Of a stretch of 39,639 bases of DNA, positions 92 through 22,790 are shown in pieces. The notes below the pieces were generated by a model. The model worked only from the letters and a program-made list of their open reading frames with translations, was not told where the DNA came from and made no database searches. The position numbers were made by a program, and so were the translations under genes. Numbering within the stretch: position 1 is the stretch's first letter; every line of letters starts with the position of its first letter. The DNA comes from Acidobacteriota bacterium (GTDB lineage: Bacteria; Acidobacteriota; Thermoanaerobaculia; Multivoradales; SZUA-115): NCBI GenBank assembly GCA_003231035.1, contig QIHU01000303.1, forward strand, positions 1 to 39,639. The letters run 5' to 3'.

Positions 92-138
92 TGAGGCGCC
101 CGGCGCCGAAGCGATTGAAATCAGCTGAAGAGGAATCC

Positions 139-215: not shown

Positions 216-237
216 ACACTTTTAGGGATAATTCATC

Positions 238-441
238 ATGTCGTGGTGGAATCAAATCAAGACCTTCCTTGCGGAGGTTCGCTCGGAAATTCGCAAGGTC
301 ACTTTTCCCGGCCGAGACGAAGTGGTCTCCACGACCATCGTGGTCCTGGTCACCAGTGTGATTTTCGCGGCCTTTCTCTGGCTCGCGGACACCGTGGTTG
401 TGTTTTGCTACCAAGGCGTTCTGCAGGTGTTCAAGTCATGA
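238..441 (+). CDS. secE: Preprotein translocase subunit SecE
   Basis: 67-aa ORF with one C-terminal TM helix (VVSTTIVVLVTSVIFAAFLWL) preceded by an EVRSEIRKVTFP motif. ATGA overlap with nusG. Conserved position between tRNA-Trp and nusG. Confidence 0.85.
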   Translation: MSWWNQIKTFLAEVRSEIRKVTFPGRDEVVSTTIVVLVTSVIFAAFLWLADTVVVFCYQGVLQVFKS

Positions 442-986
442 GCCCAGCCGAGGCCGGCGAGCTTCGCTGGTTTATCGTTCACACCTACTCGGGCTTTGAA
501 GAGCGGGTCAAGGAGACGCTGCTACAGCGCGCGGAAGCGCTGAATATGGCGGACGATTTCGGCGAGGTGCGAATCCCAACCGAGACGGTGGTCGAGTTCA
601 AGGGCGGCAAGAAGCGCGAGATTGAACGCAAGTTCTTTCCGGGTTACATCTTGGTTCAGATGGCGATGTCCGATGCGGCTTGGCACGTGGTCAAGAATAC
701 GCCGAAGGTCACCGGTTTCGTGGGCACGGGTAAGAAGCCGACTCCCCTTACCAAGGCCGAGGTCAGTCAGATTCTCGAGCAGGTTTCCACCGCGAAAGAG
801 AAGCCTAAGCCGAAATACGTCTTCGACAAGAATGAGCCGGTCAAGATTATCGACGGACCGTTCAGCAATTTCACCGGCAAGGTCGAAGAGGTCAACCTGG
901 ATCGCGAGACACTCAAGGTCATGGTGACCATTTTCGGTCGAGCGACGCCGGTGGAGCTGAGTTTCTTGCAGGTGGAGAAGCTCTAG
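438..986 (+). CDS. nusG: Transcription termination/antitermination factor NusG
   Basis: [28 protein letters not shown]... carries the NGN domain (WFIVHTYSG) and a C-terminal KOW motif ([18 protein letters not shown]). Start is taken at ATG 438 rather than ORF-track position 186, which would overlap the tRNA and secE. Confidence 0.95.
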
Positions 987-1033
987 CTCTTTCCGTTCGC
1001 ACGGGTTCGTTTTAGCATCGATACGAGGAAAAG

Positions 1034-1459
1034 ATGGCAAAGAAAGTCACCGGTCTAGTCAAACTACAGATCCCCGCCGGGGGAGCGACTCCGGCACCTC
1101 CCGTGGGCCCAGCCCTCGGTCAGGCGGGGTTGAATATCATGGACTTCTGCAAGGCGTTCAACGCGCGAACGCAAAATGAGCAGGGCCTGATTATTCCTGT
1201 CGTGATCACGGTTTACGCTGACCGCACCTATAGTTTTATTACCAAGACGCCGCCCGCGGCGGTGCTTCTGAAGAAGGCCGCCGGTTTGGCCAAGGGCTCT
1301 GGTGAACCCAATCGAGACAAGGTCGGCACGGTGACCCGGGCGCAACTTGAAGAGATTGCCACTACCAAGATGCCCGATTTGAACGCAGCGGATCTAGACG
1401 CGGCCTGCAAGATTATTGCGGGTACCGCCCGATCCATGGGAATTGAGATTCAAGGCTGA
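1034..1459 (+). CDS. rplK: 50S ribosomal protein L11
   Basis: [43 protein letters not shown] is the canonical L11 N-terminus. A GAGGAAAAG RBS lies upstream. Confidence 0.97.
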
Positions 1460-1502
1460 GCGCCGATGGGCTCAGTGAGAGCGATAGCGCAAGGAGACGA
1501 TC

Positions 1503-2207
1503 GTGTCTAAGCACGGAAAGAGATACCGCAACCTAGCGGCTGAGTTGGACGAGAGCCGGCATACGCTGGATCGCGCCATTGAACTCGCCAAAGGGACGGC
1601 ATCCACCAAGTTCGATGAAACGCTCGAGGTCGCGTTGCGACTAGGGGTGGATCCGCGTCACGCTGACCAGATGGTGCGCGGCACGGTTGTGTTGCCGCAC
1701 GGTACCGGTCGCACGGTGCGGGTGTTGGTATTTGCCGATGGCGAAAAGATCAAAGAGGCCGAGGAGGCTGGAGCCGATCACGTGGGTGGAGCCGAGTTGG
1801 CCAAGAAGATTCAAGAGGGGTGGCTCGACTTCGATGCCGTCGTTTCAACTCCCGACATGATGAAGGTCGCGGGTCGGTTGGGTCGGGTGCTAGGGCCTCG
1901 TGGTCTGATGCCCAACCCGAAGACCGGAACGGTGACGATGGATGTCACCAAGGCGATCACCGATATCAAGGCGGGTAAGGTGGAATTCCGAGTCGAGAAG
2001 GCCGGCATCGTGCAGGCGCCTCTTGGCAAGCTGTCCTTCTCCCAAGAACAGCTGCAGGAAAACGCTCGGGCGCTGATCGGAGCGGTGCTCAAGGCCAAGC
2101 CACCGGCGTCCAAGGGCAAGTACATCAAGAGTGCCTCGCTGTCGGCGACGATGGGGCCCGCTATCAAACTCGATGACGCCGCGCTCAGTGCCGCGGCTGA
2201 GGCCTAG
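1503..2207 (+). CDS. rplA: 50S ribosomal protein L1
   Basis: GTG start with an [25 protein letters not shown]...[16 protein letters not shown] is typical L1. Confidence 0.97.
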
Positions 2208-2218
2208 GAGGGCGTACG

Positions 2219-2743
2219 ATGGCCTTAACTCGTAAAAAGAAAGACTCGCTTCTCGCCGAGTACGAGAGCGGTTTCTCCCAGGTGTCCAATGCCTTCTTGC
2301 TGGGCTTCAAGGGTATCTCCGTCCCTGACGTGACGGAACTGCGCTCGAAGGTCCGCGAGAACGGTGCTGGGTATCTCGTGGTCAAGAATACCATCGCCCT
2401 GCGCGCCACCAACGGTACCGCGCTGGCCGAGTTGCAGGAACATTTCCAAGGTCCGACGGCCGTCGCCTATACCGATGGCGATGTGGTTGCGTTGGCCAAG
2501 GTCTTGACCGATTTTGCCAAGGATGTACCGGCGATCGAATTTAAGGCGGGAATCGTGGATTCCAGTCCGGTCGGCGCGGAAGATATCAAGGAGCTCGCAG
2601 GACTCCCGAGTCGCGAGGCGTTGATCGCCAAGTTGCTCTTCCTGATGCAGTCGCCGGTGACGCGACTGACCCGCGGCCTCAACGCCATCACGCGGGACTT
2701 TGTGGTCGTCGTCGACCAAATCCGGCAACAGAAAGAAGAGTGA
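2219..2743 (+). CDS. rplJ: 50S ribosomal protein L10
   Basis: AGGAGG RBS. A 174-aa L10-like sequence sits between rplA and rplL. Only 11 nt separate it from rplA, so there is no L10 leader here. Confidence 0.93.
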   Translation: MALTRKKKDSLLAEYESGFSQVSNAFLLGFKGISVPDVTELRSKVRENGAGYLVVKNTIALRATNGTALAELQEHFQGPTAVAYTDGDVVALAKVLTDFAKDVPAIEFKAGIVDSSPVGAEDIKELAGLPSREALIAKLLFLMQSPVTRLTRGLNAITRDFVVVVDQIRQQKEE

Positions 2744-2801
2744 GAGAGGTCTCTCGCAGGACTCTGGAAATCCAGTTTCGAAGAACATAAGGAGAGTTTA
2801 G

Positions 2802-3179
2802 ATGGCCATTGCCACAGAAGATTTCATTCAGCAGATTGACGAGATGAGCGTCTTGGACTTGAACAACATCGTCAAGGCGCTCGAGGAGCACTACGGCGTT
2901 TCGGCTGCCGCGGCTGGTGTTCCGATGATGGCCGCCGGTCCTGGCGGCGGCGAGGCGGAGGAGGAGCAGACCGAGTTTGACGTCGTCCTGACCTCCATCG
3001 GTGACAAGAAGATCAACGTCATTAAGACGGTTCGCGAGGTCACCAGCCTGGGACTCAAAGAGGCCAAGGAGTTGGTCGAGTCGGCGCCGGTCAACGTCAA
3101 GGAAGGCTTGTCCAAGGACGAGGCCGAAGAAGTCAAGAAGAAGTTCGAGGACGCTGGCGCTCAGGTCGACCTGAAATAG
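2802..3179 (+). CDS. rplL: 50S ribosomal protein L7/L12
   Basis: N-terminal dimerisation helix, Ala/Gly/Glu hinge ([21 protein letters not shown]), and C-terminal domain [24 protein letters not shown]...[14 protein letters not shown]. Confidence 0.97.
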
Positions 3180-3202
3180 ACCACGTTCCCGCTGTATTTG
3201 CT

Positions 3203-3232
3203 GCTCGCCGCGCATTACGATGCGCGGCGAGC
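3203..3232 (+). terminator. rplL-rpoB intergenic hairpin (attenuator-like, no U tract)
   Basis: Perfect 13-bp stem GCTCGCCGCGCAT / ATGCGCGGCGAGC with loop TACG, 24 nt after the rplL stop. A partial terminator at this position is known in other bacteria. No T-run follows. Confidence 0.5.
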
Positions 3233-3491
3233 ATTGCCGCCCCCGTATCCAATGACCCGCAAGTGCTCTCTTGAGAGTGCGTATTCTTAGCTTGGCGCGA
3301 CACCGCGCAAACATGTGATTCGGCGCTCTTGCTGACCTGCCAAAACCTCACAACCACGCTCCAGCGCCGCCTCGACGCGGTGCCAGGGAAAGACGTGGTC
3401 TACCCCCGTCCGAGTGGCGCCTCACTATCACTCGAGACTACCGCTCAGCGGTGTACTGCAAGCCCTCTTCAGCTACTGCAGGGAGGATTCC

Positions 3492-7745
<4,254 letters not shown>

Positions 7746-7757
7746 GGAGGAAGCCAG

Positions 7758-11939
<4,182 letters not shown>

Positions 11940-11967
11940 GATTTCTTCCATCGTTGCGGACTGCTTG

Positions 11968-11997
11968 GGGGCAGGTCTTTTGGGCCTGTCCCTTTTT
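11968..11997 (+). terminator. Rho-independent terminator after rpoC
   Basis: Stem GGGGCAGG (11968-11975) pairs with CCTGTCCC (11985-11992): 8 bp including one G:U, 9-nt loop. TTTTT follows at 11993-11997. It starts 29 nt after the rpoC stop. Confidence 0.55.
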
Positions 11998-12200
11998 CCA
12001 TGGTGGCGGCAAACTTGCCCCCAAAAGGATCGGCGGCTTCGGGTGTTCCACGGCGACCGTAACGCGACCTACAGGGTTTTCCTGCCGGACCTCTAGGGTT
12101 GGTCGACACACTTTGAGCTGAGTGCGCCCTACCCAGGCGCTTACAGATATGATGACGCCACCGGCGGATCCTGGCCGGAATTATCCGCGAGAGGAAGCCG

Positions 12201-14030
12201 GTGGCGAGAGGTTTGACGGATCCCGACCTGACATTCCCCGACCTGAGGGTCTTTCTCGATCATCTACGCGGTGAGCGCGACCTGGTCCACATCGAGGTTC
12301 CGGTCGATGCGCGCCTCGAAGTGGCGGAGATTCATCGCCGGGTGATCGCCGCCGGGGGGCCGGCGCTCCTCTTCACTCAGGTCCAAGGGGCAGATTTTCC
12401 GCTGGTGACCAACCTCTTCGGGACCGCCGGGCGCGCCGAGGCGGCTTTCGGGAAGCGGCCGCTGCGCCTGATCCGGCGCTTGGTCGAGCTGGCGGAGACT
12501 CTGCTGCCGCCCACTCCCGCCAAGCTCTGGGCGGCACGCGATGTGGCCCGGGAGGCCTTGCGGATCGGAATGCGCAAGCGCCGCGGCGGACCGGTCACCG
12601 AAGTGGTGACCCAGGATGTCCGGCTCGACCGGCTACCGGTATTGACCACCTGGCCCGAGGACGGCGGCCCCTTTGTCACTCTGCCTTTGGTCTATACCGA
12701 ACACCCGGATGGAAAAGGGCCGAACCTCGGAATGTATCGGTTGCAGGTGCACGACGAGCGCACCACCGGAATGCACTGGCAGATCGGCAAGGGCGGCGGC
12801 TTTCACTACGAGGTGGCCCAGGAGCGCAACGAGCCGCTGCCGGCCACCGTCTTTCTCGGCGGGCCACCGGCTTTGATTCTGGCGGCGATCGCTCCGTTGC
12901 CGGAAAACGTTCCCGAAACCCTGCTCGCCTCCCTGCTCGCCGGCCAACGTTTGCCGACCTGTGGCGGTCCCGGAGCGCACCGGTTGATCGCTTCGGCGGA
13001 GTTCGCCCTCGTCGGTTCGGTGGCCCCGAGGGTGCGCCGCGCCGAAGGTCCGTTCGGCGATCACTACGGCTATTACTCGCTGCGTCATGACTACCCGGTT
13101 TTCGAGGTCAGCCACCTGGCTCACCGTCGCGATGCAATCTTTCCCGCCACGGTGGTGGGCAAGCCTCGGCAAGAAGACTTCTTCATCGGTGACCTGCTCC
13201 AGGAGCTGCTTTCGCCCCTCTTTCCGCTGGTCATGCCGGCGGTCCGAGATCTGTGGTCGTACGGTGAAACGGGCTACCATTCCCTGGCCGCGGCGGTGGT
13301 GCGGGATCGCTACCCGCGCGAGGCGATGGTGAGTGCCTTTCGAATCTTGGGCGAAGGGCAGCTGGCGCTGACCAAGTTCCTGTTGGTGATCGATCAGCCG
13401 ATCGATCTGACCGATTTCTCAGCCACCCTGGAACATCTCCTGGCGCGAACCCGACCGGAGACCGACCTCTACGTTCTGGGCAACCTCTCGATGGACACCC
13501 TCGACTACACCGGTCCTGAGGTTAACCGGGGCTCCAAGGGGGTCTGGCTTGGCCTGGGCGAGCCGGTGCGCGATCTTCCGGGGGAGTTTCGACCGTCGGC
13601 TTCGCCTCCTCCCGAGGTCACGGATGTTCGAGTCTATTGTCGCGGTTGCTTGGTGATCGGCGGCCCGTCGTACGACGAGGACCCAGAGGCGGCGCGGCGC
13701 CTGGCGGAGCATCCAGCCTTCGCCGATTGGCCGCTCGTAGTGCTCAGCGACGAGCCGGCGCGGGCCGTCGCCAGCTCGATGAACTTCCTATGGACCACCT
13801 TCACCCGTTTCGAGCCGGCGGCCGATATCCACGCGGCGGCGCAGCGGATCGTCCGCAATCAGATATCCTACAGCCCACCGATCTTGATCGATGCGCGGAT
13901 GAAACCGGGCTATCCGGACGAGCTGTCTTGCGATGAAGGGACGGCGGCTCTGGTGACAAAGCGATGGAAGGAGTATTTCCCTGACGGAGGGGTGGAGATG
14001 GGAGACTCCGAGAGCGGCCACCTGGATTGA
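12201..14030 (+). CDS. UbiD-family (prenylated-FMN dependent) decarboxylase, long form
   Basis: GTG start with a GAGAGGAAG RBS. LRVFLDHLRGERDLVHIEVPVDARLEVAEIHRRV...PALLF...FPLVTNLFGT and later GMYRLQV...MHWQIGKGGGFHY are typical UbiD blocks. At 609 aa it resembles the menaquinone-associated long forms. Confidence 0.85.
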   Translation: MARGLTDPDLTFPDLRVFLDHLRGERDLVHIEVPVDARLEVAEIHRRVIAAGGPALLFTQVQGADFPLVTNLFGTAGRAEAAFGKRPLRLIRRLVELAETLLPPTPAKLWAARDVAREALRIGMRKRRGGPVTEVVTQDVRLDRLPVLTTWPEDGGPFVTLPLVYTEHPDGKGPNLGMYRLQVHDERTTGMHWQIGKGGGFHYEVAQERNEPLPATVFLGGPPALILAAIAPLPENVPETLLASLLAGQRLPTCGGPGAHRLIASAEFALVGSVAPRVRRAEGPFGDHYGYYSLRHDYPVFEVSHLAHRRDAIFPATVVGKPRQEDFFIGDLLQELLSPLFPLVMPAVRDLWSYGETGYHSLAAAVVRDRYPREAMVSAFRILGEGQLALTKFLLVIDQPIDLTDFSATLEHLLARTRPETDLYVLGNLSMDTLDYTGPEVNRGSKGVWLGLGEPVRDLPGEFRPSASPPPEVTDVRVYCRGCLVIGGPSYDEDPEAARRLAEHPAFADWPLVVLSDEPARAVASSMNFLWTTFTRFEPAADIHAAAQRIVRNQISYSPPILIDARMKPGYPDELSCDEGTAALVTKRWKEYFPDGGVEMGDSESGHLD

Positions 14031-14164
14031 ACTCGCCTGGATCGAAGCCGGTCGAATCGGCCGCCGCCGTTACTCACTGCCGCCAAGCTCAGAATACTCG
14101 TTTCGCGATGAACCACTAGAACCGTTTCGGGTACTCACCGCAAAATGATCAAGGAGAGCTTCCC

Positions 14165-15247
14165 ATGCATCGATTCTCGTTCAATCTACTGAATCTTGCG
14201 TTCCTCTGTGGTCTTCTCGCCCTAGCTGGGCCGGCGCGGGCCGCTAACTTCAATGTTGTTCTGAGTTCCAATGTCTTCGTGCCCTCGGTACTCAATATCA
14301 ATGTCGGCGACAGCGTCACTTGGACTAACCAAGGGGGCTTCCACAATGTGGAGGCGGTGAGTGGTCTCTTCAACAGTGGGCCGCCGGCCAATCCTCCCTG
14401 GACTTTCACCTTCACCTTCACCACGCCTGGGACGGTGCCGTACATCTGCATCGTCCACTCCGCCATCGGGATGACAGGGGTGATCAATGTCGCTGGCGCG
14501 CCGCCGGTTCCGGGCTCGATTCGCTTCGCGGAAGGCGCCTCGACGGTCAATGAGGCGGCGGGGATCAAGGCGCTTGAGTTGCAACGCATCGGCGGTAGCG
14601 ACGGTGCGGTGAGCGCGACCTTCTCAACCGCCAACGGCTCCGCCACCGCTGGCCAGGACTATACGGCGACCACTACGGTGGTGAATTGGGGGGACGGTGA
14701 CAGCAGCTCGAAGAACGTCACGGTGATGATCCTCGAAGATACTCTCGACGAGGCCAACGAGACGGTGGCGCTCTCCCTTTCCAACCCGACGGGCGGAGCT
14801 AGCCTGGGCAACCCGGCGAACGCGACGCTGACCATCATCGACAATGACGATGCCACCCCGCCGCCGCCACCGCCACCGCCGCCGCCAGTGGAGCCATGTG
14901 TGGAAGATGCGGAAACCCTCTGCCTGCTCGATGACCGTTTTGAGGTCACGGCCCTCTTTGAAACCAACCAGGGTCAGACCGGGGTGGCTCAGGCGATCGA
15001 GCTGACGCCGGACACCGGCTACTTCTGGTTCTTCACCGAGGAGAACGTCGAGCTGGTGGTCAAAGTCCGCAACGCCTGTGTCAATCCTTTCAACCGCTTC
15101 TGGTTCTTCGCTGGCGGTCTGACCAATGTGCAGGTCGACATCATGGTGACAGACACCGAAACCGGTGCGACAAAGAGCTACAGCAACCCACTGAACACCC
15201 CTTTCCTACCGATCACCGACACCGACGCCTTCAATACCTGTCCCTAG
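14165..15247 (+). CDS. Secreted multidomain protein: signal peptide, type-1 copper (cupredoxin) domain, Calx-beta domain, poly-Pro linker, unassigned Cys-containing C-terminal domain
   Basis: AAGGAGAG RBS and signal peptide ending ARA|A. Copper ligand pattern H60...C95-x2-H98-x4-M103 (GGFHNV, YICIVHSAIGM). The Calx-beta signature is SIRFAEGASTVNEAAG...GSATAGQDY...DDTLDEANETVALSLSNPTGGASLG. PPPPPPPPPP lies at nt 14858-14887, followed by a 118-aa domain. Confidence 0.8.
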   Translation: MHRFSFNLLNLAFLCGLLALAGPARAANFNVVLSSNVFVPSVLNINVGDSVTWTNQGGFHNVEAVSGLFNSGPPANPPWTFTFTFTTPGTVPYICIVHSAIGMTGVINVAGAPPVPGSIRFAEGASTVNEAAGIKALELQRIGGSDGAVSATFSTANGSATAGQDYTATTTVVNWGDGDSSSKNVTVMILEDTLDEANETVALSLSNPTGGASLGNPANATLTIIDNDDATPPPPPPPPPPVEPCVEDAETLCLLDDRFEVTALFETNQGQTGVAQAIELTPDTGYFWFFTEENVELVVKVRNACVNPFNRFWFFAGGLTNVQVDIMVTDTETGATKSYSNPLNTPFLPITDTDAFNTCP

Positions 15248-16276
15248 GCAAATTGGTGGAGTCGTGTAACCAGGGAGCCCGGCCACGGGCTCCCTGGATG
15301 CCGTCTGTATGGGGTCGTCCAGGCCGGTTTCTAGCTTCGGGCTAGAGTTGCTTCCGGGATCCGCGTTGGCCTTGGCGATGAATCTCGCGGCCTGCTCGGC
15401 GACCTTTCGGTTCCTGAGAATCCTGCGGTGGCCCAAACCGTCGGTGGTGAGCAGCCGCGAGTTCGGCCAGGCTCGGTGGACCTGCAAGCCGCCTTCATAG
15501 CTGGTCTCTGGGTCCCCTCGGTCGTGGGCCACCAGTAGGGGGATCTCGGTGGCCGCATCCATGGTGACGCGGCGCACCGCTTCCCAGGAGATGTGGAATC
15601 GTCGTTCGATCGCTTGGGTCAGGGTGTCGTAGACCCGGTCGGGAAGGCCGAAGGAATGGACGGTGCGCAAGAGGAAACCACCGAAGTCGGCGGGCGGCGC
15701 GACAAAAACGAGCCGTTCCATGTGCAGCCCTTGGCGCACCGCGAGGGCAGCGATGGCGCAGCCGAAGGAGTGGGCGATCAGGCCATGCAGCGGGCCGGCT
15801 GCTTGCGCGGCGGCTTGCAGAGCATTGGTCATCTCCGGTAGCGAAGAGAGCTTGCCGCCGCTCTCGCCGTGAGCGGGGGAGTCGAAAGTGACCACCCGGT
15901 AGCCCGCCGCGGTCAAGGGCGTCACGAAGGCTCCCATCTGACTACCCCTTCCTTCCCAGCCATGAACCAGGAGGACGGTTGGGCCAGAACCCCAAGCCCA
16001 GCCGGCGAGTTCATGGGGTGCATCGGCGTCGGCGCCGACCGAGGGACGAATCGGGATGGCGAACCGTTGTGCCGTCGCCAGCCACTTCTCTTCGCGGTCT
16101 GGACGTCGGTGGGGACGTGGCGTGCGAAACTGCGCCAAGGCCAGTTTCTCGATCTTGCGGGGCACGATTCGATAGGCGATCGGCAGCAGCGTGCGCAAGG
16201 CACGCATTGAAAAGGAAGAAGAGCGAACGTTCGTTCTTTTTTCAAGATCAGACTTCTGCTTCTTGTCCATGGTCAT
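15206..16276 (-). CDS. Alpha/beta-fold hydrolase
   Basis: VLLVHGWEGRGSQ, nucleophile elbow IAHSFG, and a late DRGD...GLGHRRIL are consistent with a Ser-Asp-His triad. It lies 19 nt downstream of the TetR gene (operon). Its 3' end overlaps the convergent cupredoxin gene by 42 nt. The start could also be ATG 16270. Confidence 0.75.
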   Translation of the reverse strand: MTMDKKQKSDLEKRTNVRSSSFSMRALRTLLPIAYRIVPRKIEKLALAQFRTPRPHRRPDREEKWLATAQRFAIPIRPSVGADADAPHELAGWAWGSGPTVLLVHGWEGRGSQMGAFVTPLTAAGYRVVTFDSPAHGESGGKLSSLPEMTNALQAAAQAAGPLHGLIAHSFGCAIAALAVRQGLHMERLVFVAPPADFGGFLLRTVHSFGLPDRVYDTLTQAIERRFHISWEAVRRVTMDAATEIPLLVAHDRGDPETSYEGGLQVHRAWPNSRLLTTDGLGHRRILRNRKVAEQAARFIAKANADPGSNSSPKLETGLDDPIQTASREPVAGLPGYTTPPICLGTGIEGVGVGDR

Positions 16277-16295
16277 CTCCGGGAGTCGGACGGTA

Positions 16296-16898
16296 CTAGC
16301 ACTGGGCGATCGGGGCCGCGGAGCGAATCAATCTCTCGAAAGCACGTCGAGTTCGCGGCTTCGTCTCGGGGTCGCGCAAGAGGCGGTCGAAGTGATGGTG
16401 GGCCAATAGGATCGAATACAGCTCGTAGGCGAACTGGTGAGTATCGAGGTTAGCTCGGAAGTGGCCCTCTTCGACGCCGAGCCGGGTCGCGGTGGTCAAC
16501 GCCTCGATCCAGTCGCGTTGCGCGGCCACCAGGGCTTCGCGCAATGGACCGGGGCGATCGTCGAGCTCGTTGGCGGTGGCCAAAAAAATACAACCACCCG
16601 GAAGATAGGGTGCCTGAGTCCAATCCATCCAACGCTCGACGAAGGCTCGAATGCGCGGCTCCCCGCGGGGAGCCGCCAGCGCGGGGGCGATCACATCGTC
16701 GATGAATCGACGCACCGCCGTTCCCAGGACCTCGATCTGGAGATTCTCCTTCGAGGCGAAATGGGCGAAGAGACCGCTCTTGGACATCCCCACCTCTTTG
16801 GCCAGACTACCGATCGACAACGCCTCCAGTCCGTACGTGCTGGCGGCGGCGAGGGCGGTGGAGAGAATCGTCTCTCGGGTTTCGGCTCCTTTGCTCAC
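16296..16898 (-). CDS. TetR/AcrR-family transcriptional regulator
   Basis: GTG start. The N-terminal HTH RETILSTALAAASTYGLEALSIGSLAKEVGMSKSGLFAHFASKENL is the classic TetR_N signature. Confidence 0.9.
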   Translation of the reverse strand: MSKGAETRETILSTALAAASTYGLEALSIGSLAKEVGMSKSGLFAHFASKENLQIEVLGTAVRRFIDDVIAPALAAPRGEPRIRAFVERWMDWTQAPYLPGGCIFLATANELDDRPGPLREALVAAQRDWIEALTTATRLGVEEGHFRANLDTHQFAYELYSILLAHHHFDRLLRDPETKPRTRRAFERLIRSAAPIAQC

Positions 16899-17051
16899 CG
16901 ATCGATACTAGCACGGTCGTGCGGTTCTGGGTCAAGAGGGGTACGGCGAGAGTTCGCATTGAGCGAAGACAGGCAAATAGATGTATGATGTGAATCACTG
17001 AACTGAGGCTTGAAAATATCTGCTCCGTCTCGCTGAATGGGGAGAGGCCGA

Positions 17052-17197
17052 ATGCGATTGCCGAGGGTGTTGCACCGAGGTTGGCCATGGATGGTCCTGC
17101 AAGTGGTGGTGGTGGTGACGGGCTACCTGTCGCGACCTGGTTTTGAGCTGATCCTGCGCAATGACAGCCATCTCTACGTCAAGTTGGCGCGGCAGGT
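17052..17197 (+). pseudogene. 5' fragment of a membrane GT-C-like (ArnT/PMT_2-like) gene interrupted by the mobile element
   Basis: GGAGAGG RBS and ATG 17052, encoding MRLPRVLHRGWPWMVLQVVVVVTGYLSRPGFELILRNDSHLYVKLARQ. As it stands, the reading frame runs into the left inverted repeat and stops at TAA 17208-17210. It joins in frame to 21596 onward once the element and one TSD copy are removed. The split itself is certain. The GT-C family call is moderate (motif NDS.Y..LA......RT.GYPLFL). Confidence 0.75.
17190..17197. repeat. Target-site duplication, left copy (CGGCAGGT)
   Basis: These 8 nt directly abut the outer end of the left IR and are identical to 21588-21595, which abut the right IR. 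Confidence 0.9.
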
Positions 17198-17223
17198 GGT
17201 GGTGTCCTAAGAGTGTGTGGGCG
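17198..17223 (+). repeat. Left terminal inverted repeat (IRL)
   Basis: GGTGGTGTCCTAAGAGTGTGTGGGCG. The reverse complement of 21562-21587 is GGTGGTGTCCTAACAGTGTGTGGGCG (one mismatch). Confidence 0.92.
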
Positions 17224-17363
17224 CCCGATCTAGCCTGACTCGGCTTGAGCGGGCGGTAGTCTTGCCGGTATCGGGAGGGGCGCGCCTTCCCGGAACCGAT
17301 GAAGCGGCCCGGCGCAGCGGTGAGAACGCGACGCCGAGCCTAGCCACTCAGGAGACAAGCCTC

Positions 17364-17609
17364 ATGAGCGACCGCGATAATTGTACCGCCGACCCGGAGC
17401 GCGAGACCGATTTACAGGAGATACACGCCGGCCTGATGTCGGCGGACGAAGCCGACTGGAACCAAGCATTGCGGGCCGTGCTGCTGCGCCTGCTAGCTCA
17501 CAAGCGGATTTGGTTCGCTACCGCTGCGCAGATCGGAGCTACAGCCGACCGGCAAGGCAAGCGCGCAGCGTTGGTGGAGTTGGTGATGGTTCTAGCTTTC
17601 GAGGGCTAG
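17364..17609 (+). CDS. Hypothetical protein (81 aa), passenger gene
   Basis: AGGAGA RBS lies 8 nt before ATG 17364, encoding MSDRDNCTADPERETDLQEIHAGLMSADEADWNQALRAVLLRLLAHKRIWFATAAQIG... No recognisable motif. A hairpin with a short T-run follows. Confidence 0.45.
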   Translation: MSDRDNCTADPERETDLQEIHAGLMSADEADWNQALRAVLLRLLAHKRIWFATAAQIGATADRQGKRAALVELVMVLAFEG

Positions 17610-17621
17610 GAACTGGAGTTG

Positions 17622-17647
17622 AGGGCGGCGCGGGTCGCCCTTTCCTT
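17622..17647 (+). terminator. Terminator-like hairpin after the 81-aa ORF
   Basis: AGGGCGGC / GTCGCCCT (8 bp, one G:U), GCGG tetraloop, then TTCCTT. Confidence 0.4.
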
Positions 17648-17778
17648 GGCCTAGAGTTGTTACCGATCTACCCGAAGGAGCAGGATTGAAGTAAGATGCT
17701 TGCGTGTGGCGCTTTGATTTAAGCCTCAAGATGGGGCCGGAACGACCACTGGTCGCTCAATGGAAGGAGTCAGAGAGA

Positions 17779-18228
17779 ATGGTTCGCAAGCTAGATGACT
17801 TGATCGATGAGTTCGCATCAGATTTTGACGGCAACATGAAGTCAGATGAAGTTGCGAATGACCGGAGCCGGAAGCGAAGAGACGACTTCTGCGATGCATT
17901 CCTTCAGTGGCATCGATCTACCCTGTTGCCTTTGCTTGAGCGCGCAGGGTCAAGGATCGAGGAAAAGTCAGAGTTCCTACAGACGTCTGTAGGCCCTAAT
18001 CCACTTGGGCTTGATGGCACGACTCTTAGGGTCTTCAGACGAAGCGACACAAGCAATCTTTCCGGTTGGTCCATGACCTTCTTGAAGCACTTCGAGTCAC
18101 TGAAGGTAAAGGTTTTAATTGATATGCCCGGAAAAGACACAGAAGACTTTTCCGTTGATGCTTTGACGGAAGAGCGCCTTGACGAGCTGATTGCTGAGTT
18201 CTTGCGGATGATTTCTATTCGCCGCTAG
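17779..18228 (+). CDS. Hypothetical protein (149 aa), passenger gene
   Basis: AAGGAG RBS lies 9 nt before ATG 17779, encoding MVRKLDDLIDEFASDFDGNMKSDEVANDRSRKRRDDF... The GC content is low. No motif is recognised. Its stop codon overlaps the stop of the convergent transposase gene. The ORF track opens at 17704. Confidence 0.55.
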   Translation: MVRKLDDLIDEFASDFDGNMKSDEVANDRSRKRRDDFCDAFLQWHRSTLLPLLERAGSRIEEKSEFLQTSVGPNPLGLDGTTLRVFRRSDTSNLSGWSMTFLKHFESLKVKVLIDMPGKDTEDFSVDALTEERLDELIAEFLRMISIRR

Positions 18229-19190
18229 ATCGATGCCGCTAGCAGATCGCCCATCGACCACGGCGCCCGTGTGACTCCGGCCTTCATCGCCGGGGTCATG
18301 CGGATCGACCGATGCATCTTGCAGAGGTTGTAGCTCGCGAAGTGCAGGGCGAACGCGGCGCGGAGGTTCTCCCACTTCTTGGAGAATGCACAGGTTAGGC
18401 GGGTCATCCGCTTCATGTGGGTGCGGATGGTGAGGTTCGACCGCTCAACGTGGCTAGTGCAGATCCGCGCTTCGTCAGGCGCGCCGTGGATGGCTCGCTT
18501 CTCAATGGCTATTATCGAGGCGGGAGAATACCGCCGCTGATCTTCCTTCGTGGTGGAGCCGTACTGCTTGATGACCTGGCCGTAGTCCACTCGTGTTCCC
18601 AGGTGGTAGCTGATGGCTTCCGGGTAGGAGTCGAGGCCATCGGTGGAGAGTTGGAAGCGGCCGGCCGTGGCCTTGTCCAGTGCCTCGCAAAAGGCGTCAG
18701 CGTGCATCGCGGTACGGGAGCCGAGCCGGTGGGTGAGAATCATCTTGCTCTCGCGGTCAATGGCTGTCCAACACCAAGCATCACCAAGGTGGTGGCTGTC
18801 GATCTTCCTACCGGTCTTGGTCTTCTGCTTCATCCCGACGAAACCCCAAATCTCATCTGCTTGAACATCGTTGACCTCGACGCCCACCACCAGGCGCTCA
18901 AGGAGTTCGCCGCAGCGGTCGCCGACGGTGCGCAGCAGGCGACACACGGTGTCTCTGTGCGTCCCGGTTACGCGCTCGATAGCGCGGATGCTGGAACCCT
19001 CGACTAGGAGGTTGAGAACCAGGATGGCCCGCTCTAGCGGGATGCGGTGGTTGCCCAGCGGGCGGGCCGGCCGGTTGGCGAAGGTCGAGCCGCAAGCCTT
19101 GCACTTGAACCGCTGGTGGCCGTTGCGATCCGCTCCCCACTTGATGGCGTCGCCGGAGCATTTCGGGCAATTGGTGTGTGTCGTTTCCAT
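18225..19190 (-). CDS. IS1-family transposase, single ORF (zinc finger + HTH + DDE)
   Basis: N-terminal CPKCSG...CKACG zinc finger and HTH SSIRAIERVTGTHRDTVCRLLRTVG. DDE candidates are VQADEIWGFVG, LSTDGLDSYPEA and HVERSNLTIRTHMKRMTRLTCAFSKKWENL. The last closely parallels E. coli IS1 InsB [25 protein letters not shown]. Confidence 0.88.
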   Translation of the reverse strand: METTHTNCPKCSGDAIKWGADRNGHQRFKCKACGSTFANRPARPLGNHRIPLERAILVLNLLVEGSSIRAIERVTGTHRDTVCRLLRTVGDRCGELLERLVVGVEVNDVQADEIWGFVGMKQKTKTGRKIDSHHLGDAWCWTAIDRESKMILTHRLGSRTAMHADAFCEALDKATAGRFQLSTDGLDSYPEAISYHLGTRVDYGQVIKQYGSTTKEDQRRYSPASIIAIEKRAIHGAPDEARICTSHVERSNLTIRTHMKRMTRLTCAFSKKWENLRAAFALHFASYNLCKMHRSIRMTPAMKAGVTRAPWSMGDLLAASI

Positions 19191-19196
19191 GTCCCT

Positions 19197-19225
19197 ACTG
19201 TACTCCCTTTAGGAGTACAAGTCAA
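19197..19225 (-). promoter_or_regulatory. Putative transposase promoter with an embedded 8-5-8 palindrome
   Basis: The minus strand reads TTGACT, a 17-nt spacer, TACAGT, then AGGGAC and ATG. The -10 therefore ends 6 nt before the start codon, giving leaderless geometry. The palindrome TGTACTCC-CTTTA-GGAGTACA (19199-19219) covers the spacer and part of the -10. Confidence 0.5.
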
Positions 19226-19260
19226 GAGATTGAGAAGAGGAATCCTCAGAAATCTTGGTA

Positions 19261-19289
19261 TTGACATGGCGTTACGATGGGAGTACATT
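19261..19289 (+). promoter_or_regulatory. Putative promoter of the RHH gene
   Basis: TTGACA (19261-19266), a 17-nt spacer, TACATT (19284-19289), then GGGAGC and ATG 19296. The geometry matches the divergent transposase promoter. The half-site GGAGTACA recurs at 19280-19287. Confidence 0.5.
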
Positions 19290-19295
19290 GGGAGC

Positions 19296-19460
19296 ATGAA
19301 GGAAGCGCGAATACAGGATGAGAGATTGCAGGTCAGATGCACGGCGGAAGAGAAGGCGACACTGCATGCGGCGGCAAAGCTAGAGAACCGAAACCTCTCG
19401 AACTTTGTTCTAACAGCAGCGCTTGAGCGAGCGCGTACGGAACTCAAGAAGGAGAAGTAG
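19296..19460 (+). CDS. Ribbon-helix-helix protein of the DUF1778/TacA antitoxin type, truncated to the DNA-binding domain (54 aa)
   Basis: MKEARIQDERLQVRCTAEEKATLHAAAKLENRNLSNFVLTAALERARTELKKEK matches the DUF1778 RHH pattern (beta strand R-L-x-V-R, EEK..L..AA...G.S.S.F). It ends where TacA-type antitoxins begin their toxin-binding tail. An alternative ATG at 19266 lacks an RBS. Confidence 0.65.
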   Translation: MKEARIQDERLQVRCTAEEKATLHAAAKLENRNLSNFVLTAALERARTELKKEK

Positions 19461-19660
19461 GGCGGCGCGTAGGGATCGGACCTCGACCGCCCTACGGCTA
19501 GATATCTGCGACCGTGGCAGATACGGCCGATGCCGCTTCCACCCGATCGCTCTTGGAGCCTCTTGGGCCACCTCGCACCGCCTTTCCAGTTGCGGCACAG
19601 CCCTGCGAGCGGATACAATCCACCCGATGAAATCAATGGCAGGGCTGCTGCCTGGTTTCT

Positions 19661-19690
19661 GAAACGCCACCTCGTAACAGGTGGCGTTTC
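19661..19690. terminator. Perfect 12-bp stem hairpin between convergent genes
   Basis: GAAACGCCACCT-CGTAAC-AGGTGGCGTTTC. The U tract is poor on both strands (GCGTT on plus). It may be a bidirectional terminator or a protein-binding/nick-site hairpin. Confidence 0.45.
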
Positions 19691-19784
19691 GCGTTAGCGG
19701 GGTCTACTTCGCCCCGACCTCAGCATCGTAAGTGAGCGATGCCGGCCTGTCAAGCGGGCTAAGTCTATGAAAACAATAGGCTTA

Positions 19785-20630
19785 CTAGCGTCTTGTCCCG
19801 GACGAAAAGGATGACTTATCCCGTTCTTCTTCGATATTTACAGATTTTGTCCCGTCTTTTTTGGAGACTGTCCCGCTGTTTGAGTTACCTTGTCCCGTAA
19901 CCGGGCTCAGCCTGTCCCGAAGTGCGGAAATCGAATCTCTTGCCCAAAAAAAGTCGTATACGGCGACACGGCGCTCTTCAAGGCGGTCCTCCTCGCCATG
20001 CAAGCGTTTCAGCTCCGAGAGAATCTCCTCCTCCTCGAAGAAACCCTTCTCTCGAAGTGAAGGCACGAGCCGGTCAGCGTGACCGGCTAGGAACTCTTGC
20101 ATCTCCTTCAGCTCTGCCTTGATGCTCTCGACAAGTGAGCCCAGCTCAGGGTCTGCCGGGTCGATGCCGAGCCTTCGGAGTTTCTCCGCCGCCGGCTCTA
20201 GGCTTCTCTCTGCCTCCTCCAGAGCCCTTCTCTCGTTGGCAAAGATGTTCTTCACGCCCCGTTCTTGAAATTCAGGAACCGGAGGACCCGTGGGCAAGGT
20301 GCCTTTCTTCTTAGCGCGGCGAAACGCTCTTCGAAGGCGCTCATAGTGGCGCTTTGGTGGATCCAGATTCCGCTTTCGAATGAGCCGCCAGACAGCAGCC
20401 TCCTGTTCGAGGCCATCTACCTCAATCAAGCGCCTTATCTGGTAGAGCTCGGCGTGCTTTTCCGACTTGGAGCTCCGATATCTCTCATCGGATGGCAAGG
20501 GGTTGCACCTCCACCTGGTGCCCACAAAGAAAAGCGGCGCGGCATTCCGGGCTGTGGGAGCCCAGCGTTCGGGGATCAACCTAGCCGCGCCGAAGATTGA
20601 GGCGATTCTACAGGAGGGGGCGGCGGTCAA
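19785..20630 (-). CDS. Hypothetical charged, helix-rich protein (up to 281 aa; start uncertain), passenger gene
   Basis: A long ORF lies 45 nt downstream of the DUF3800-like gene on the same strand. The basic patch RRAFRRAKKKG is followed by acidic helical segments (ERRALEEAERSLEPAAEKLRRLG, EEEILSELKRLHGEEDRLEERR). The last ~45 codons are encoded by the repeat array and read as low-complexity SGT/DGT/RDK. No internal ATG occurs before residue 176, so an alternative start codon is likely. Confidence 0.5.
   Translation of the reverse strand: MTAAPSCRIASIFGAARLIPERWAPTARNAAPLFFVGTRWRCNPLPSDERYRSSKSEKHAELYQIRRLIEVDGLEQEAAVWRLIRKRNLDPPKRHYERLRRAFRRAKKKGTLPTGPPVPEFQERGVKNIFANERRALEEAERSLEPAAEKLRRLGIDPADPELGSLVESIKAELKEMQEFLAGHADRLVPSLREKGFFEEEEILSELKRLHGEEDRLEERRVAVYDFFWARDSISALRDRLSPVTGQGNSNSGTVSKKDGTKSVNIEEERDKSSFSSGTRR
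19793..19919 (+). repeat. Array of six phased direct repeats, consensus (T/C)TGTCCCG
   Basis: Copies start at 19793 TTGTCCCG, 19816 TTATCCCG, 19847 TTGTCCCG, 19868 CTGTCCCG, 19890 TTGTCCCG and 19912 CTGTCCCG. All share one orientation. Spacings are 23, 31, 21, 22 and 22 bp, with AT-rich spacers. Confidence 0.85.
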
Positions 20631-20675
20631 CGCGGCGGGAGGGCTACTCGGAAGCCGTGGACGGTGGCGGATCTG

Positions 20676-21545
20676 CTAACTGATTTCTGAGTCGAGGTCC
20701 GAATTGATTTTCTCGCCGTACGCTTGAATCTGCGCGAAGTACTCACGAAGAATCCGACTTCTTGGTGTTAGGTGCTGCGCCTTGAACTTGATGCGCTTGC
20801 CCATGATCAGATTGCGAAATTCAGGCCGCGAAGGCTCCTTGCCACTGTCAAGGTGTTCACCCTTGAATCGTCCGTATTCCCACGCGAGTAGATCGGCTGC
20901 CTGAAGGACTGTTGAGTCCTGCTTTCCGACGAATGCGTGGGAGTGGTAGTGATATGCACGGCGCAATGTAGCGTCTCGCCTCACGAGGTGCATCAAAGCG
21001 TCGGCGTCGCCTTGCGGACCTTCGTTTCCCTGCTCAAAGAGATAGGAAACGACATCTGTCCTCTTATCCTTGTCCAGGTGCGCACCGACCGCAGCGAGAC
21101 AGAAGTGGGCACAAAGTGGGTACGCGCGGTTGAATCCGCGCACCTTAGGAAGGTATGGTTCGATCTCGGTGAGGTTGCAGGCGACTGCTACCCCGAACTG
21201 AGCGTACTTTGCAATAATTTCGACAGCTTGATCCTGAAGCCGTTGCGACGCTTCGCGCCCTCTCAGGTGCTTAAACTGTCGATTTCTGTGTACAACCTCC
21301 ACCATGTGGAAGATCCGGCCACAAGTAAGCATCTCTTTCCACTCAGACTGAAAACGCGCAGCCTGACCCTTGGTGAATACGAAGCCAGCCACGCAGAAAG
21401 TGCCGTCTGGCCTCTGCGATTCGTCGAAGTAGGCTTTCAGCATGCAGGCTAGGCCGCCGTCCCTTGGGAGAAGGTCGTTAAGGTCGAAACCCAAGAAGTC
21501 TAGCGCATCGCTCGTGGCTACACTGGCCCCCCGCCCGCTACTCAT
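20676..21545 (-). CDS. DUF3800-like protein, passenger gene
   Basis: MLKAYFDESQRPDGTFCVAGFVF and LQAADLLAWEY match the two hallmark DUF3800 motifs as I remember them (N-terminal DES, C-terminal Q.aDl.a). Start is taken at ATG 21545 (GGGGGAAGG RBS), 17 nt inside the right IR. ATG 21443 would start directly at the conserved core and is an alternative. Confidence 0.6.
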   Translation of the reverse strand: MSSGRGASVATSDALDFLGFDLNDLLPRDGGLACMLKAYFDESQRPDGTFCVAGFVFTKGQAARFQSEWKEMLTCGRIFHMVEVVHRNRQFKHLRGREASQRLQDQAVEIIAKYAQFGVAVACNLTEIEPYLPKVRGFNRAYPLCAHFCLAAVGAHLDKDKRTDVVSYLFEQGNEGPQGDADALMHLVRRDATLRRAYHYHSHAFVGKQDSTVLQAADLLAWEYGRFKGEHLDSGKEPSRPEFRNLIMGKRIKFKAQHLTPRSRILREYFAQIQAYGEKINSDLDSEIS

Positions 21546-21561
21546 CCCCGCCGCCTTCCCC

Positions 21562-21587
21562 CGCCCACACACTGTTAGGACACCACC
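21562..21587 (-). repeat. Right terminal inverted repeat (IRR)
   Basis: CGCCCACACACTGTTAGGACACCACC is the reverse complement of IRL with one mismatch. Confidence 0.92.
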
Positions 21588-21595
21588 CGGCAGGT
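21588..21595. repeat. Target-site duplication, right copy (CGGCAGGT)
   Basis: Identical to 17190-17197 and directly abuts the IRR. Confidence 0.9.
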
Positions 21596-22790
21596 TCCGG
21601 TGGGTGAGATGCTGGGTAGCATGCGCACCGTGGGGTATCCACTCTTCTTGCGGGCGGTCGAGAGCGCTTGTGGCGAGCTGCTTTGCCTGCCGGCTGTACA
21701 GTTGTTGCTATACGGTTTTTCGGTGGTGCTACTCTGCGCGGCGCTGGAACGGTTTGGCCTCTCCGCCTTGGCAGCGGTCGTGGCTACCACCCCTCTTCTC
21801 TATTCCTCGTTGGTCGTGCACTTGGCGCCTTCGGCCATGACCGAGGTTCCGGCCTCGGCCTTTGGCTTGGTTGCGTTGTCCGCGCTGCTTGGCCTGTCGC
21901 TGGCGCGGGGGCGGGCGGTTGGCCTCTGGATCCTCTTTGGGGCCACCCTCTTGGTGGCCTACCAGATTCGACCGGCGTTCCTATTCCTGGTTCCACTCAG
22001 TCCGCTGGCCGTTCTGGTCTGGAGCCGTTCTCTACGTCGTGCCGGGGTCGTCCTGCTGGTGGCGGTGGTGCCCTTCTTGGCTTTCAGCTTCTTGCGCTGG
22101 GTGGTGGTGGGGCACTTCGGGCTGGTCGGTTTTGCGGGCTACAATCTCTCGGGTATCGCTACGTCCATGGTGGGAGACGAGGTGATCGAAGTTCTGCCCG
22201 CTGAGGATCAAGAGCTAGCCTCCCGTATCCTCGCGCAACGCCAAGCCCGTGGCTTGCCGCCGCTCACCGCCTCCTCTCCGTACGACGACTGGCAGGAGTC
22301 CTTCAACATTAACGCGTGGAAGATCGCCATTCCCCAGGCACGCGGGTTGTGGAGGGAGTTTTACTCCGACCGCCCCCCTGAGATTCCGCGCGATCTGTTT
22401 GTCGATCGGCGGCTCAGTCGATTCTCGATCTCCGTGATCCGCCAGCGACCGCGTTTGTATGCGGTTTGGCTAGCTCGGTCGTGGTTGCGAGCCTTGCGGT
22501 TGACCGCCGCCAAACCTTGGATCTGGCTGCCGGCGTTGCTGTGCCTATTCAGCGCGGCAGTTTGTCGTTGGCGTTGCCAGAAAGGGGGGTGGAGCGGTGC
22601 CGGAGCGGCTCTGAACTTCCTGCTGCTGGCGGTCGCGTTCTATCTCGCCTCCCTCGCCCTCACCCTGCTGGTTGAACCACCGGAGTGGCGCTACCTGGCC
22701 TCGGCCGAACTTCTTCTGCCCGGTGCGATGTTGGCCGCGGCGGTGGAGCTTTGGCGCTCTGGATCGGGGAAGGGAGCGGTCGAGCGGTGA
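21596..22790 (+). pseudogene. 3' fragment of the interrupted membrane GT-C-like gene
   Basis: The open frame (ORF track 21600-22790) encodes many TM helices: GSMRTVGYPLFLRAVESACG..., AYQIRPAFLFLVPLSPL. The frame is continuous with 17052-17197 after excision: ...LYVKLARQ-V-PVGEMLGSMRTVGYPLFL. Confidence 0.75.

Follow-up and report, generated by a model that had tools for sequence, protein, structure and literature searches.

A DUF3800 gene and a rare helical-protein gene as probable independent passengers of an IS1-family transposon in an Acidobacteriota bacterium

The window considered here is a contig of 39,639 nucleotides (QIHU01000303.1, assembly GCA_003231035.1) from an Acidobacteriota bacterium, in which a 4,390-bp IS1-family transposon at 17198-21587 encloses two co-oriented open reading frames (ORFs): ORF1, encoding a DUF3800 protein, and ORF2, encoding a protein of a rare helical family (Table 1). 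A sequence-only reading of this DNA had described the two genes as transposon cargo and, beyond that, as a candidate two-gene system of the defence or addiction kind. The first part of this description stands, both genes lying within an element bounded by inverted repeats and target-site duplications (TSDs). The second part does not: the ORF2 family tracks the transposase and a structured leader RNA across 12 loci, with DUF3800 present at only two of them, and the adjacency of the two genes is a by-product of cassette shuffling in the transposon, with no dedicated two-gene system involved.

The boundaries of the element can be drawn to the nucleotide, and homologous ends (GGnnnTGnCCTA) bound the sibling elements described below. 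When the element and one TSD copy are excised, the two parts of the interrupted host gene join in frame to encode a 451-aa polytopic membrane protein, marking a clean transposon insertion of 4,390 bp into that gene. The insertion seems recent and inactivating, because the halves join into an uninterrupted ORF across a single TSD copy. The split protein may resemble GT-C-type glycosyltransferases, to judge from an N-terminal ND..Y...A pattern. As the sequence-only reading had noted, the cargo genes are lower in guanine-cytosine (GC) content than the chromosome (DUF3800 54.3%, ORF2 57.2% and the whole element 57.8%, against 60.5% and 63.8% in the left and right flanks), and the first gene has its ATG codon at 21545, 17 nt inward of the right inverted repeat.

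Table 1. Positions of the features discussed in the text (window coordinates, except for the leader copies of sibling loci)
Feature	Position	Strand	Description and basis
Interrupted membrane-protein gene	5' part 17037-17197; 3' part 21596-22790	+	In-frame rejoining
Left TSD copy	17190-17197		8 bp, CGGCAGGT; identical to 21588-21595
Left terminal inverted repeat	17198-17223	+	GGTGGTGTCCTAAGAGTGTGTGGGCG; 26 nt, 25/26 complementary to 21562-21587
81-aa putative ORF	17364-17609	+	Open reading frame only
174-aa passenger ORF	17704-18228	+	Slot convergent with transposase 3' end; 4-nt overlap with transposase stop codon
Single-ORF IS1-family transposase	18225-19190	-	321 aa; NCBIfam and Pfam models
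Divergent promoter region, transposase/ribbon-helix-helix gene	19188-19298		20-nt inverted repeat I5
Ribbon-helix-helix regulator, TacA/Arc/MobA type	19296-19460	+	54 aa; Pfam TacA1
ORF2	19785-20498	-	237 aa, TTG start; gene call P0001 and homologue alignments
Structured 5' leader of ORF2, int-alpA class	20505-20591	-	87 nt; Rfam RF02996 and model R1
-10-like box TAGAAT	20605-20610	-	13 nt upstream of leader; CCTGTAGAATC conservation
Transposase 3'-end remnant	20646-20678	+	33 nt, last 11 codons (TRKPWTVADLL); abuts DUF3800 stop codon
ORF1, DUF3800 protein, predicted RNase H2-like	20676-21545	-	289 aa; Pfam PF12686, AlphaFold/Foldseek
Right terminal inverted repeat	21562-21587	-	Pairs with left repeat (I2)
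Right TSD copy	21588-21595		CGGCAGGT
Second leader copies	L012 3915-4000; L017 8119-8203; L021 1689-1786; L038 1914-2002; L062 7536-7621; L078 7631-7714	-	R1

Read literally, ORF1 extends on the minus strand over 20676-21572 (298 aa from a GTG codon), or over 289 aa from the ATG at 21545. Its proposed membership of DUF3800, suggested earlier by the motifs AYFDESQ and LQAADLLAWEY, was borne out by a Pfam search, in which it scored 25.3 bits against PF12686 (gathering score 21, E 2.8e-5) over profile positions 2-148 of 149; nothing was found for it in PHROGs or NCBIfam. Thirteen homologues were detected at 24-64% identity. Both the N-terminal D-E(-S) and the C-terminal Q-x-x-D motifs are present, the D and the AADL block being invariant or nearly so in 14 homologues, and the conserved D41/E42 (of FDES), E171 and D218 (within LQAADLL) are candidate catalytic residues. 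A 30-residue N-terminal extension (DFLGFDLxxLLP) is kept in relatives, some of which have no internal methionine.

The guess that this protein might recall RNase H-fold nucleases is supported by its AlphaFold model (predicted local distance difference test, pLDDT, 85; predicted template modelling score, pTM, 0.85). In a Foldseek comparison with the PDB, the top 12 matches of the model were all RNase HII/H2 chains (E 1.7e-4 to 2e-3), and the first 21 comprised 19 RNase HII/H2 and two RNase HIII chains (also type 2), the best matches having a probability of 1.0 and TM-scores of 0.36-0.50. An RNase H2-like fold has been reported for DUF3800 (PMC7736814, for retron type VII; PMC10910872), in agreement with the model. 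DUF3800 genes have also been found beside Cas12a2/a3 and Cas13 (PMC13594972; bioRxiv 10.64898/2026.08.25.746378) and next to eleven noncoding RNA (ncRNA) motifs, with no fixed side or orientation (Weinberg et al. 2017, PMC5737381); this literature contains no DUF3800 protein with an assigned biochemical activity. On the strength of the predicted fold, ORF1 probably encodes a stand-alone RNase H2-like nuclease, and its most likely role would be that of a conflict gene, acting in defence or against other mobile elements, carried as cargo.

The extent of ORF2 had to be revised. Taken literally, it covers 19785-20630 (281 aa from TTG), which leaves it co-oriented with ORF1 and 45 nt away, as described in the sequence-only reading. 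The co-orientation holds, but both the length and the spacing change: the database gene call has 237 aa, and the closest relative, P0016 (34% identity, E 2.9e-23), aligns residue for residue at the N-terminus and has an equivalent start residue, so that the start is placed at TTG 20498, with GGAGG 9 nt upstream. The 44 upstream codons of the longer reading overlap a conserved promoter-like TAGAAT and the 87-nt structured RNA; the true spacer is 177 nt and holds ORF2's own expression signals, its contents being a 33-nt scar, the CCTGTAGAATC -10-like box and the RNA. The ORF2-family genes of three other loci (L001, L010 and L011) likewise begin with TTG. At four more (L009 ~1679-1690, L058 ~1693-1700, L074 ~4780-4788 and L212 ~1992-2000), there is no ATG, GTG or TTG where the paralogues start (M-[AG]-K-R-G...); ATC or ATT-ATC stands 0-6 nt past the Shine-Dalgarno hairpin, and the public gene calls begin upstream, within the leader. 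This pattern suggests AUC initiation in these four genes.

ORF2 is a real protein, and its family is rare and helical. A word-index homologue search with the 281-aa version returned only the query itself, while an exhaustive search of 1.84 billion representative proteins revealed the family, with 20 relatives at E <= 1e-3. The AlphaFold model (pLDDT 88.8) is all-helical, with three predicted short helices (residues 11-65) followed by long helices and a disordered 40-residue tail. The protein has an N-terminal three-helix, basic-arm module and the motif ERLRRAFRRAKKKGTLP, and the family motif ERLRKKYRRLxxxGxLP lies in residues 11-65. The earlier remark that no domain is recognisable in this protein proved accurate, as no match was obtained in Pfam, PDB, BFVD, PHROGs, NCBIfam or PADLOC; a family profile found nothing below E 0.07 among PDB sequences, and Foldseek searches of PDB and BFVD with the model yielded generic coiled coils only, all at E > 0.3. 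The N-terminal module is, however, common to ORF2 and another family that occupies slot L, the cargo slot upstream of the transposase (hhalign probability 88%, E 2.8e-6, 40 columns); the shared part consists of a basic arm (G-R/K-x-G-x-K) and then helices. Judged from the model, ORF2 most likely binds DNA and serves the element as an accessory or regulatory protein.

Whether the two genes form a pair was addressed by comparing their neighbourhoods. The ORF2 family was found at 12 distinct loci, namely the window, L001, L009, L010, L011 (= L012 = L013), L015, L046 (a weak match), L058, L074, L212, L213 and L214. At all 12 the leader lies directly upstream of the ORF2-family gene, and in all 10 distinct contigs that extend far enough an IS1 transposase follows on the same strand at a distance of about 0.35-0.65 kb, mostly with a ribbon-helix-helix gene in between. 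DUF3800 is present at only two of the 12, the window and L001, and in the latter it lies across the transposase from the ORF2-family gene, about 1.65 kb away. Seen from the other side, the DUF3800 genes of L001 (58% identity) and L003 (64%) are convergent with, and overlap, the 3' end of an IS1-type transposase gene, an arrangement repeated at L059, and the relatives in L002 and L004-L008 stand in other contexts; no ORF2-family gene is found near the DUF3800 relatives of L002, L004-L008 and L059, L003 being too short to judge. There is no sign of an operon in the window, given the conserved -10 box and the leader that belong to ORF2 itself. The sequence-only reading had held that its proposal would fall if the two genes never co-occurred elsewhere, and the comparison comes close to that outcome: they meet once more, at L001, as non-adjacent co-passengers. 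The defence-system screen that it had recommended gave no support either, PADLOC-DB v2 containing no match at E <= 1 for the DUF3800 protein, ORF2, the 174-aa ORF or the ribbon-helix-helix protein.

The junction between the genes records how they came together. The 33-nt transposase remnant beyond the DUF3800 stop codon forms an inverted repeat (I1) with the 3' end of the resident transposase gene and was matched by tblastn; it resembles the 3' end of the L001 transposase gene more closely than that of the resident gene, with the similarity ending near 20645 (alignment A5). Since a sibling-transposase remnant follows the DUF3800 stop codon, the cassette evidently came by recombination from a sibling element, where it had occupied the convergent slot, and was placed ahead of the ORF2 promoter. 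A degraded second transposase gene antisense to ORF2 was considered and ruled out, as the match is limited to the last 11 codons.

The RNA preceding ORF2 could be assigned to a known class. The window copy matches the full length of Rfam RF02996, the int-alpA motif (positions 1-71 of 71; 26.4 bits, E 0.024), and full-length matches of 26.9-33.9 bits lie directly 5' of ORF2 homologues in L001, L009, L010 and L012. Metagenomes were searched with a pattern derived from the ORF2-linked leader copies, giving 120 stretches, 20 of which were scored against Rfam; 16 of the 20 pass the RF02996 gathering score, among them a copy from a sibling element (L125) at 37.2 bits, and the leader therefore belongs to the int-alpA class. 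With a covariance model (R1) built from 12 ORF2-linked leaders, 39 copies were found in 92 loci, the window copy scoring 76.9 bits. Among 37 distinct sibling-element copies, 98% of cells form standard pairs, and changes on both sides are seen in 9 of 18 pairs; none of 500 shuffles reaches this result, and in slid controls pairing drops to 30-53%. Such comparative data are the basis of the RNA call, single-sequence folding being indistinguishable from shuffles. In a permissive Rfam scan of the element (E <= 10), none of the motifs DUF3800-I to XI was matched, and weak matches to Deinococcus Y RNA, snoRNAs and lncRNAs seem to be due to chance. A literature search for the int-alpA motif gave incidental mentions only, with no function reported there.

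Several further features lie around and within the leader. The sequence CCTGTAGAATC or near variants are conserved 5' of the leader in ORF2 loci and in many other copies, and the TAGAAT box may serve as an ORF2 promoter element; the leader is then followed by a hairpin containing the Shine-Dalgarno sequence. The loop of the third helix (for example CCCACA, CCGCA, CUCCGA, CCGUA or CCCUAC) has a complementary site immediately 3' to the first helix, and in most copies a second loop-complementary site is found in the Shine-Dalgarno hairpin. The loop and both sites change together, CCCACA, for instance, occurring with UGUGGG and UGUGGGGG, and CCGCA with UGCGG and UGCGGAGG. The pseudoknot and the alternative pairing were scored in 147 parsed copies as cognate versus permuted loop-downstream complementarity, a test inflated by the relatedness of the copies: the summed complementarity was 12.07 for cognate against 9.77 +/- 0.17 for permuted combinations (z = 13.4, reached by 0 of 5000 permutations), and two complementary sites were present in 70% of cognate vs 34% of non-cognate pairs. 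Such a leader could act as a translational gate. The proteins encoded downstream of the leader class are hypervariable, 111 distinct sequences falling into 79 BLAST clusters. Some 30 sibling loci carry the leader, as a rule 1-1.5 kb ahead of the transposase gene and on its strand. The window has one copy; in six or so loci a second, inward-facing copy lies in the slot beyond the transposase (Table 1), the leader in this way serving as a portable cassette for cargo expression.

The core of the element consists of the transposase gene and its divergent neighbour. The transposase scores 106.5 against the NCBIfam equivalog model NF033558 (transpos_IS1, cutoff 100), 40.6 against the zinc-ribbon model IS1_IS1595_Zn (NCBIfam, cutoff 28) and 36.3 vs 24.1 against Pfam DDE_Tnp_IS1 (E 8.5e-9), and shares 59-73% identity with its counterparts in L001, L010 and L011. 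Its zinc-ribbon, helix-turn-helix (HTH) and DDE regions all lie within one continuous ORF of 321 aa, so that it belongs to a single-ORF branch of IS1 and not to classical IS1, whose two-ORF insA/insB' layout with a -1 frameshift is absent from it. The ribbon-helix-helix protein scores 35.8 bits against Pfam TacA1 (E 7.7e-9, above the gathering score), with weaker Arc-like (PHROG) and sub-cutoff MobA/RelB (NCBIfam) matches, and a homologue is divergent from the transposase gene in about 60 of 79 sibling loci. The sequence-only reading had taken it for an antitoxin-type regulator. A TacA-type gene is indeed there, but it is the divergent partner of the transposase, and no toxin gene stands beside or downstream of it among the ORFs listed there.

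Between the two genes, a 20-nt inverted repeat (19188-19207/19279-19298) overlaps the -10 regions of both divergent promoter-like sites (TTGACT-17-TACAGT on the minus strand and TTGACA-17-TACATT on the plus strand). Similar palindromes are present in L001, L010 and L012, and this palindrome is a likely operator for the ribbon-helix-helix protein. Another near-consensus sigma-70-type site, TTGACA-17-TACGAT, occurs just past the ORF2 stop codon (19725-19753, minus strand) and is followed by a 12-bp perfect hairpin at 19661-19690 (fold z = -4.1, no U tract); a putative transcript from this site would run antisense to the ribbon-helix-helix gene, toward the transposase gene.

A genome scan with the transposase alignment placed the element in a family of 79 sibling loci, mostly from metagenome-assembled genomes (MAGs) of Acidobacteriota (Thermoanaerobaculia, Holophagales, Pyrinomonadaceae and others), with a few from other phyla. 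Sizes range from 1.8 to 5.8 kb, and a perfect 8-bp duplication is found in 23 of the 25 siblings having both GGnnnTGnCCTA ends in range. Slot L holds at least six unrelated protein clusters, and slot R, convergent with the transposase gene, holds DUF3800 (L001, L003, L059), membrane proteins, P63C proteins, a methylase-Mrr fusion or an HTH_3-Peptidase_M78 protein. The sibling cargo includes an N6/N4 methylase-Mrr-type endonuclease fusion, two P63C-domain proteins and an HTH_3-Peptidase_M78 (ImmA/IrrE-like) protein, at L087 7010-8608 (+), L017 7036-8115 (+), L084 3220-4353 (-) and L068 4716-5816 (-), which gives the cargo of the family a flavour of conflict and regulation; many other sibling cargo proteins have no family match. 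In the window, the slot in which siblings carry DUF3800 or unrelated proteins is occupied by the 174-aa ORF, for which Pfam, PADLOC, PHROGs and NCBIfam gave no match. No published description of this mostly acidobacterial group was found in the searchable literature, and a search for ISMhu11 was also empty.

Taken together, these data are best accounted for, in our view with good though incomplete confidence, by regarding ORF1 and ORF2 as independent passenger units of a 4,390-bp IS1-family transporter insertion sequence (IS), ORF2 being most likely an accessory or regulator and DUF3800 a conflict cargo gene. The core comprises the single-ORF transposase and the divergent ribbon-helix-helix repressor, flanked by the two cargo slots, with the repressor probably silencing both its own and the transposase promoter through the palindrome. 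Slot L, upstream of the transposase gene and on its strand, holds ORF2 with its basic-arm/HTH-like N-terminal module, apparently expressed from its own -10 box through the int-alpA-class leader. The hairpin loop of the leader would have alternative pairing partners, the decoy site and, for the majority of the family, the Shine-Dalgarno region, and such switching, combined with the weak TTG start, would keep ORF2 translation gated, low and conditional. DUF3800, as a conflict gene, would pay for the retention of the element; in sibling elements it sits in slot R, convergent with the transposase gene, whereas recombination has here shifted it to the leftmost part of slot L, together with 33 nt of its former neighbour's 3' end.

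Several observations weigh against parts of this account. No promoter was identified for DUF3800, and both the window and L001 carry DUF3800 as well as ORF2, so that some functional link between them is possible. The window leader lies below the RF02996 gathering score (26.4 vs 35.8), folds alone no better than shuffles (z = -0.54) and has a weak second (Shine-Dalgarno) site of 4 bp, and the covariation counts come from a model-fitted alignment of related sequences. As for ORF2, it has no detectable homology to any characterised DNA-binding protein, its HTH reading being based on the three-helix model and a sequence pattern. A broader proposal, that int-alpA-class leaders are portable translational gates placed before interchangeable, fast-evolving basic-arm/HTH cargo including ORF2, with an anti-Shine-Dalgarno-like loop that would select either the decoy or the true ribosome-binding site, is offered tentatively and is more doubtful than the passenger account itself. 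If true, it would be the first account of how the orphan int-alpA motif works and would describe modular leader-plus-cargo cassettes on IS1-family elements, with DUF3800 as one exchangeable conflict gene.

Other explanations were weighed against the same evidence. A dedicated two-gene defence or addiction module, in which a nuclease and a helical sensor or partner travel as one cassette, could draw on the adjacency and shared orientation of the genes in the window, on their joint presence in L001, on the defence-type cargo of sibling elements and on the ties of DUF3800 to retrons and CRISPR accessory modules (PMC7736814, PMC10910872, PMC13594972). It is nevertheless very improbable, given that the L001 genes lie on opposite sides of the transposase gene, about 1.65 kb apart, that DUF3800 is missing from the 10 other distinct ORF2-family loci (L214 being too short to inform) and that its relatives in L002, L004-L008 and L059 do without ORF2; moreover, the 177-nt spacer carries ORF2's own -10 box and leader, the junction bears a recombination scar, and the PADLOC search was empty. 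Equally far-fetched, or slightly more so, is the idea that DUF3800 works with the int-alpA-class RNA as its partner or substrate, the RNA being more than the leader of ORF2. The RNA begins 85 nt past the DUF3800 stop codon, and DUF3800 genes do occur next to ncRNAs on any side and in any orientation (Weinberg et al. 2017, PMC5737381), but R1 detects about 30 leader-bearing sibling loci that lack DUF3800 and no leader in the DUF3800 loci L002, L003, L004, L005, L008 and L059. About 2.2 kb separates the RNA from DUF3800 in L001, the RNA always stands directly 5' of an ORF with a Shine-Dalgarno hairpin, and the Rfam motifs DUF3800-I to XI are absent from the element at E <= 10.

Somewhat less remote, yet still unlikely, is a reading in which ORF2 is a fast-evolving effector directed against the host or competing mobile elements (for example, in anti-defence) and the leader is a general cassette for hypervariable cargo. 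The great diversity of the leader-class downstream proteins (111 sequences in 79 clusters), the second inward-facing leader in the other slot of some siblings, and the rarity and quick divergence of the ORF2 family would all suit it. Against it, the position of ORF2 beside the transposase-regulator core is fixed, and the N-terminal basic-arm/three-helix module is common to ORF2 and another slot-L family, which favours a common nucleic-acid-binding role over unrelated effectors.

Comparison with known systems shows where the element is familiar and where it departs from them. IS elements with passenger genes form a recognised class, the transporter IS or tIS (PMC7986276). The present element resembles an IS1 tIS in that its transposase passes the IS1 equivalog model and has an IS1/IS1595 zinc-ribbon N-terminus, its TSD measures 8 bp, as in IS1 (8-9 bp), and it has 26-nt terminal inverted repeats. 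These repeats begin with GGTGGTG, which fits the GGnnnTG ends listed for IS1 by ISfinder. Unlike IS1, it has a one-ORF transposase with no insA/insB frameshift, measures 4.4 kb vs 0.77 kb, and possesses a conserved, divergently placed gene for a ribbon-helix-helix protein, two cargo slots and an int-alpA-class leader that would drive slot cargo. The ribbon-helix-helix protein likewise recalls TacA-TacT in passing the TacA1 model, but no acetyltransferase or other toxin gene adjoins it, the gene is tied to the transposase, and its scores are comparable for MobA, NikA and Arc-type repressors.

ORF1 shares with the DUF3800 proteins of retron type VII, of the Cas12a2/a3-associated TPR-DUF3800 modules and of Cas13 Csx32 its family score, the D-E and Q-x-x-D motifs, a predicted RNase H2-like fold and a mobile-element context. 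It differs in standing alone and in its conserved 30-residue N-terminal extension: no reverse transcriptase was present among the seven ORFs scanned in and around the element and no retron Rfam family was matched, nor did Pfam show a TPR domain or the whole window contain tandem or CRISPR-like repeats. The window leader agrees with int-alpA over the full model, with the same P1 helix, two internal hairpins and 3' pseudoknot partner. It also lies on a mobile element and precedes the gene of a small protein that probably binds DNA, as the integrase and alpA of the motif's name would lead one to expect. It departs from int-alpA in the lower score of the window copy and in a downstream gene that is homologous to neither integrase nor AlpA, and these copies run 3' into a Shine-Dalgarno hairpin with a second copy of the loop complement.

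The window element accordingly belongs to known kinds (tIS, DUF3800 and int-alpA), and its novelty is modest, residing in the transposon family and the int-alpA model. A false lead has been removed, in that DUF3800 and the helical protein are no new two-gene defence system, and a stand-alone DUF3800 gene for a probable nuclease as shuffled IS1-family cargo adds to the picture of mobile conflict genes. A coherent family of 1.8-5.8-kb IS1-type transposons with two cargo slots, mostly in Acidobacteriota, is now defined, and a concrete, testable model is available for int-alpA, in which a loop would alternate between covarying decoy and Shine-Dalgarno sites.

Some minor observations concern the surroundings of the element and one of its siblings. 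The 81-aa ORF near the left end had no match in Pfam, PHROGs or NCBIfam. Over 1-16900, the window contains tRNA-Trp and a pair of co-oriented ORFs of great length (1443 and 1393 aa). Their size and order make them probable rpoB and rpoC genes of a cluster for ribosomal proteins and RNA polymerase, in which case the surroundings of the transposon are of the housekeeping kind and not a defence island. At L009 5222-5280 (+), a sub-threshold SECIS_3 match (35.6 bits vs 63, E 1.2e-4) falls at the junction of two molybdopterin-oxidoreductase gene calls, which probably represent a selenocysteine-containing formate-dehydrogenase-type gene split at its UGA codon and unrelated to ORF1 and ORF2.

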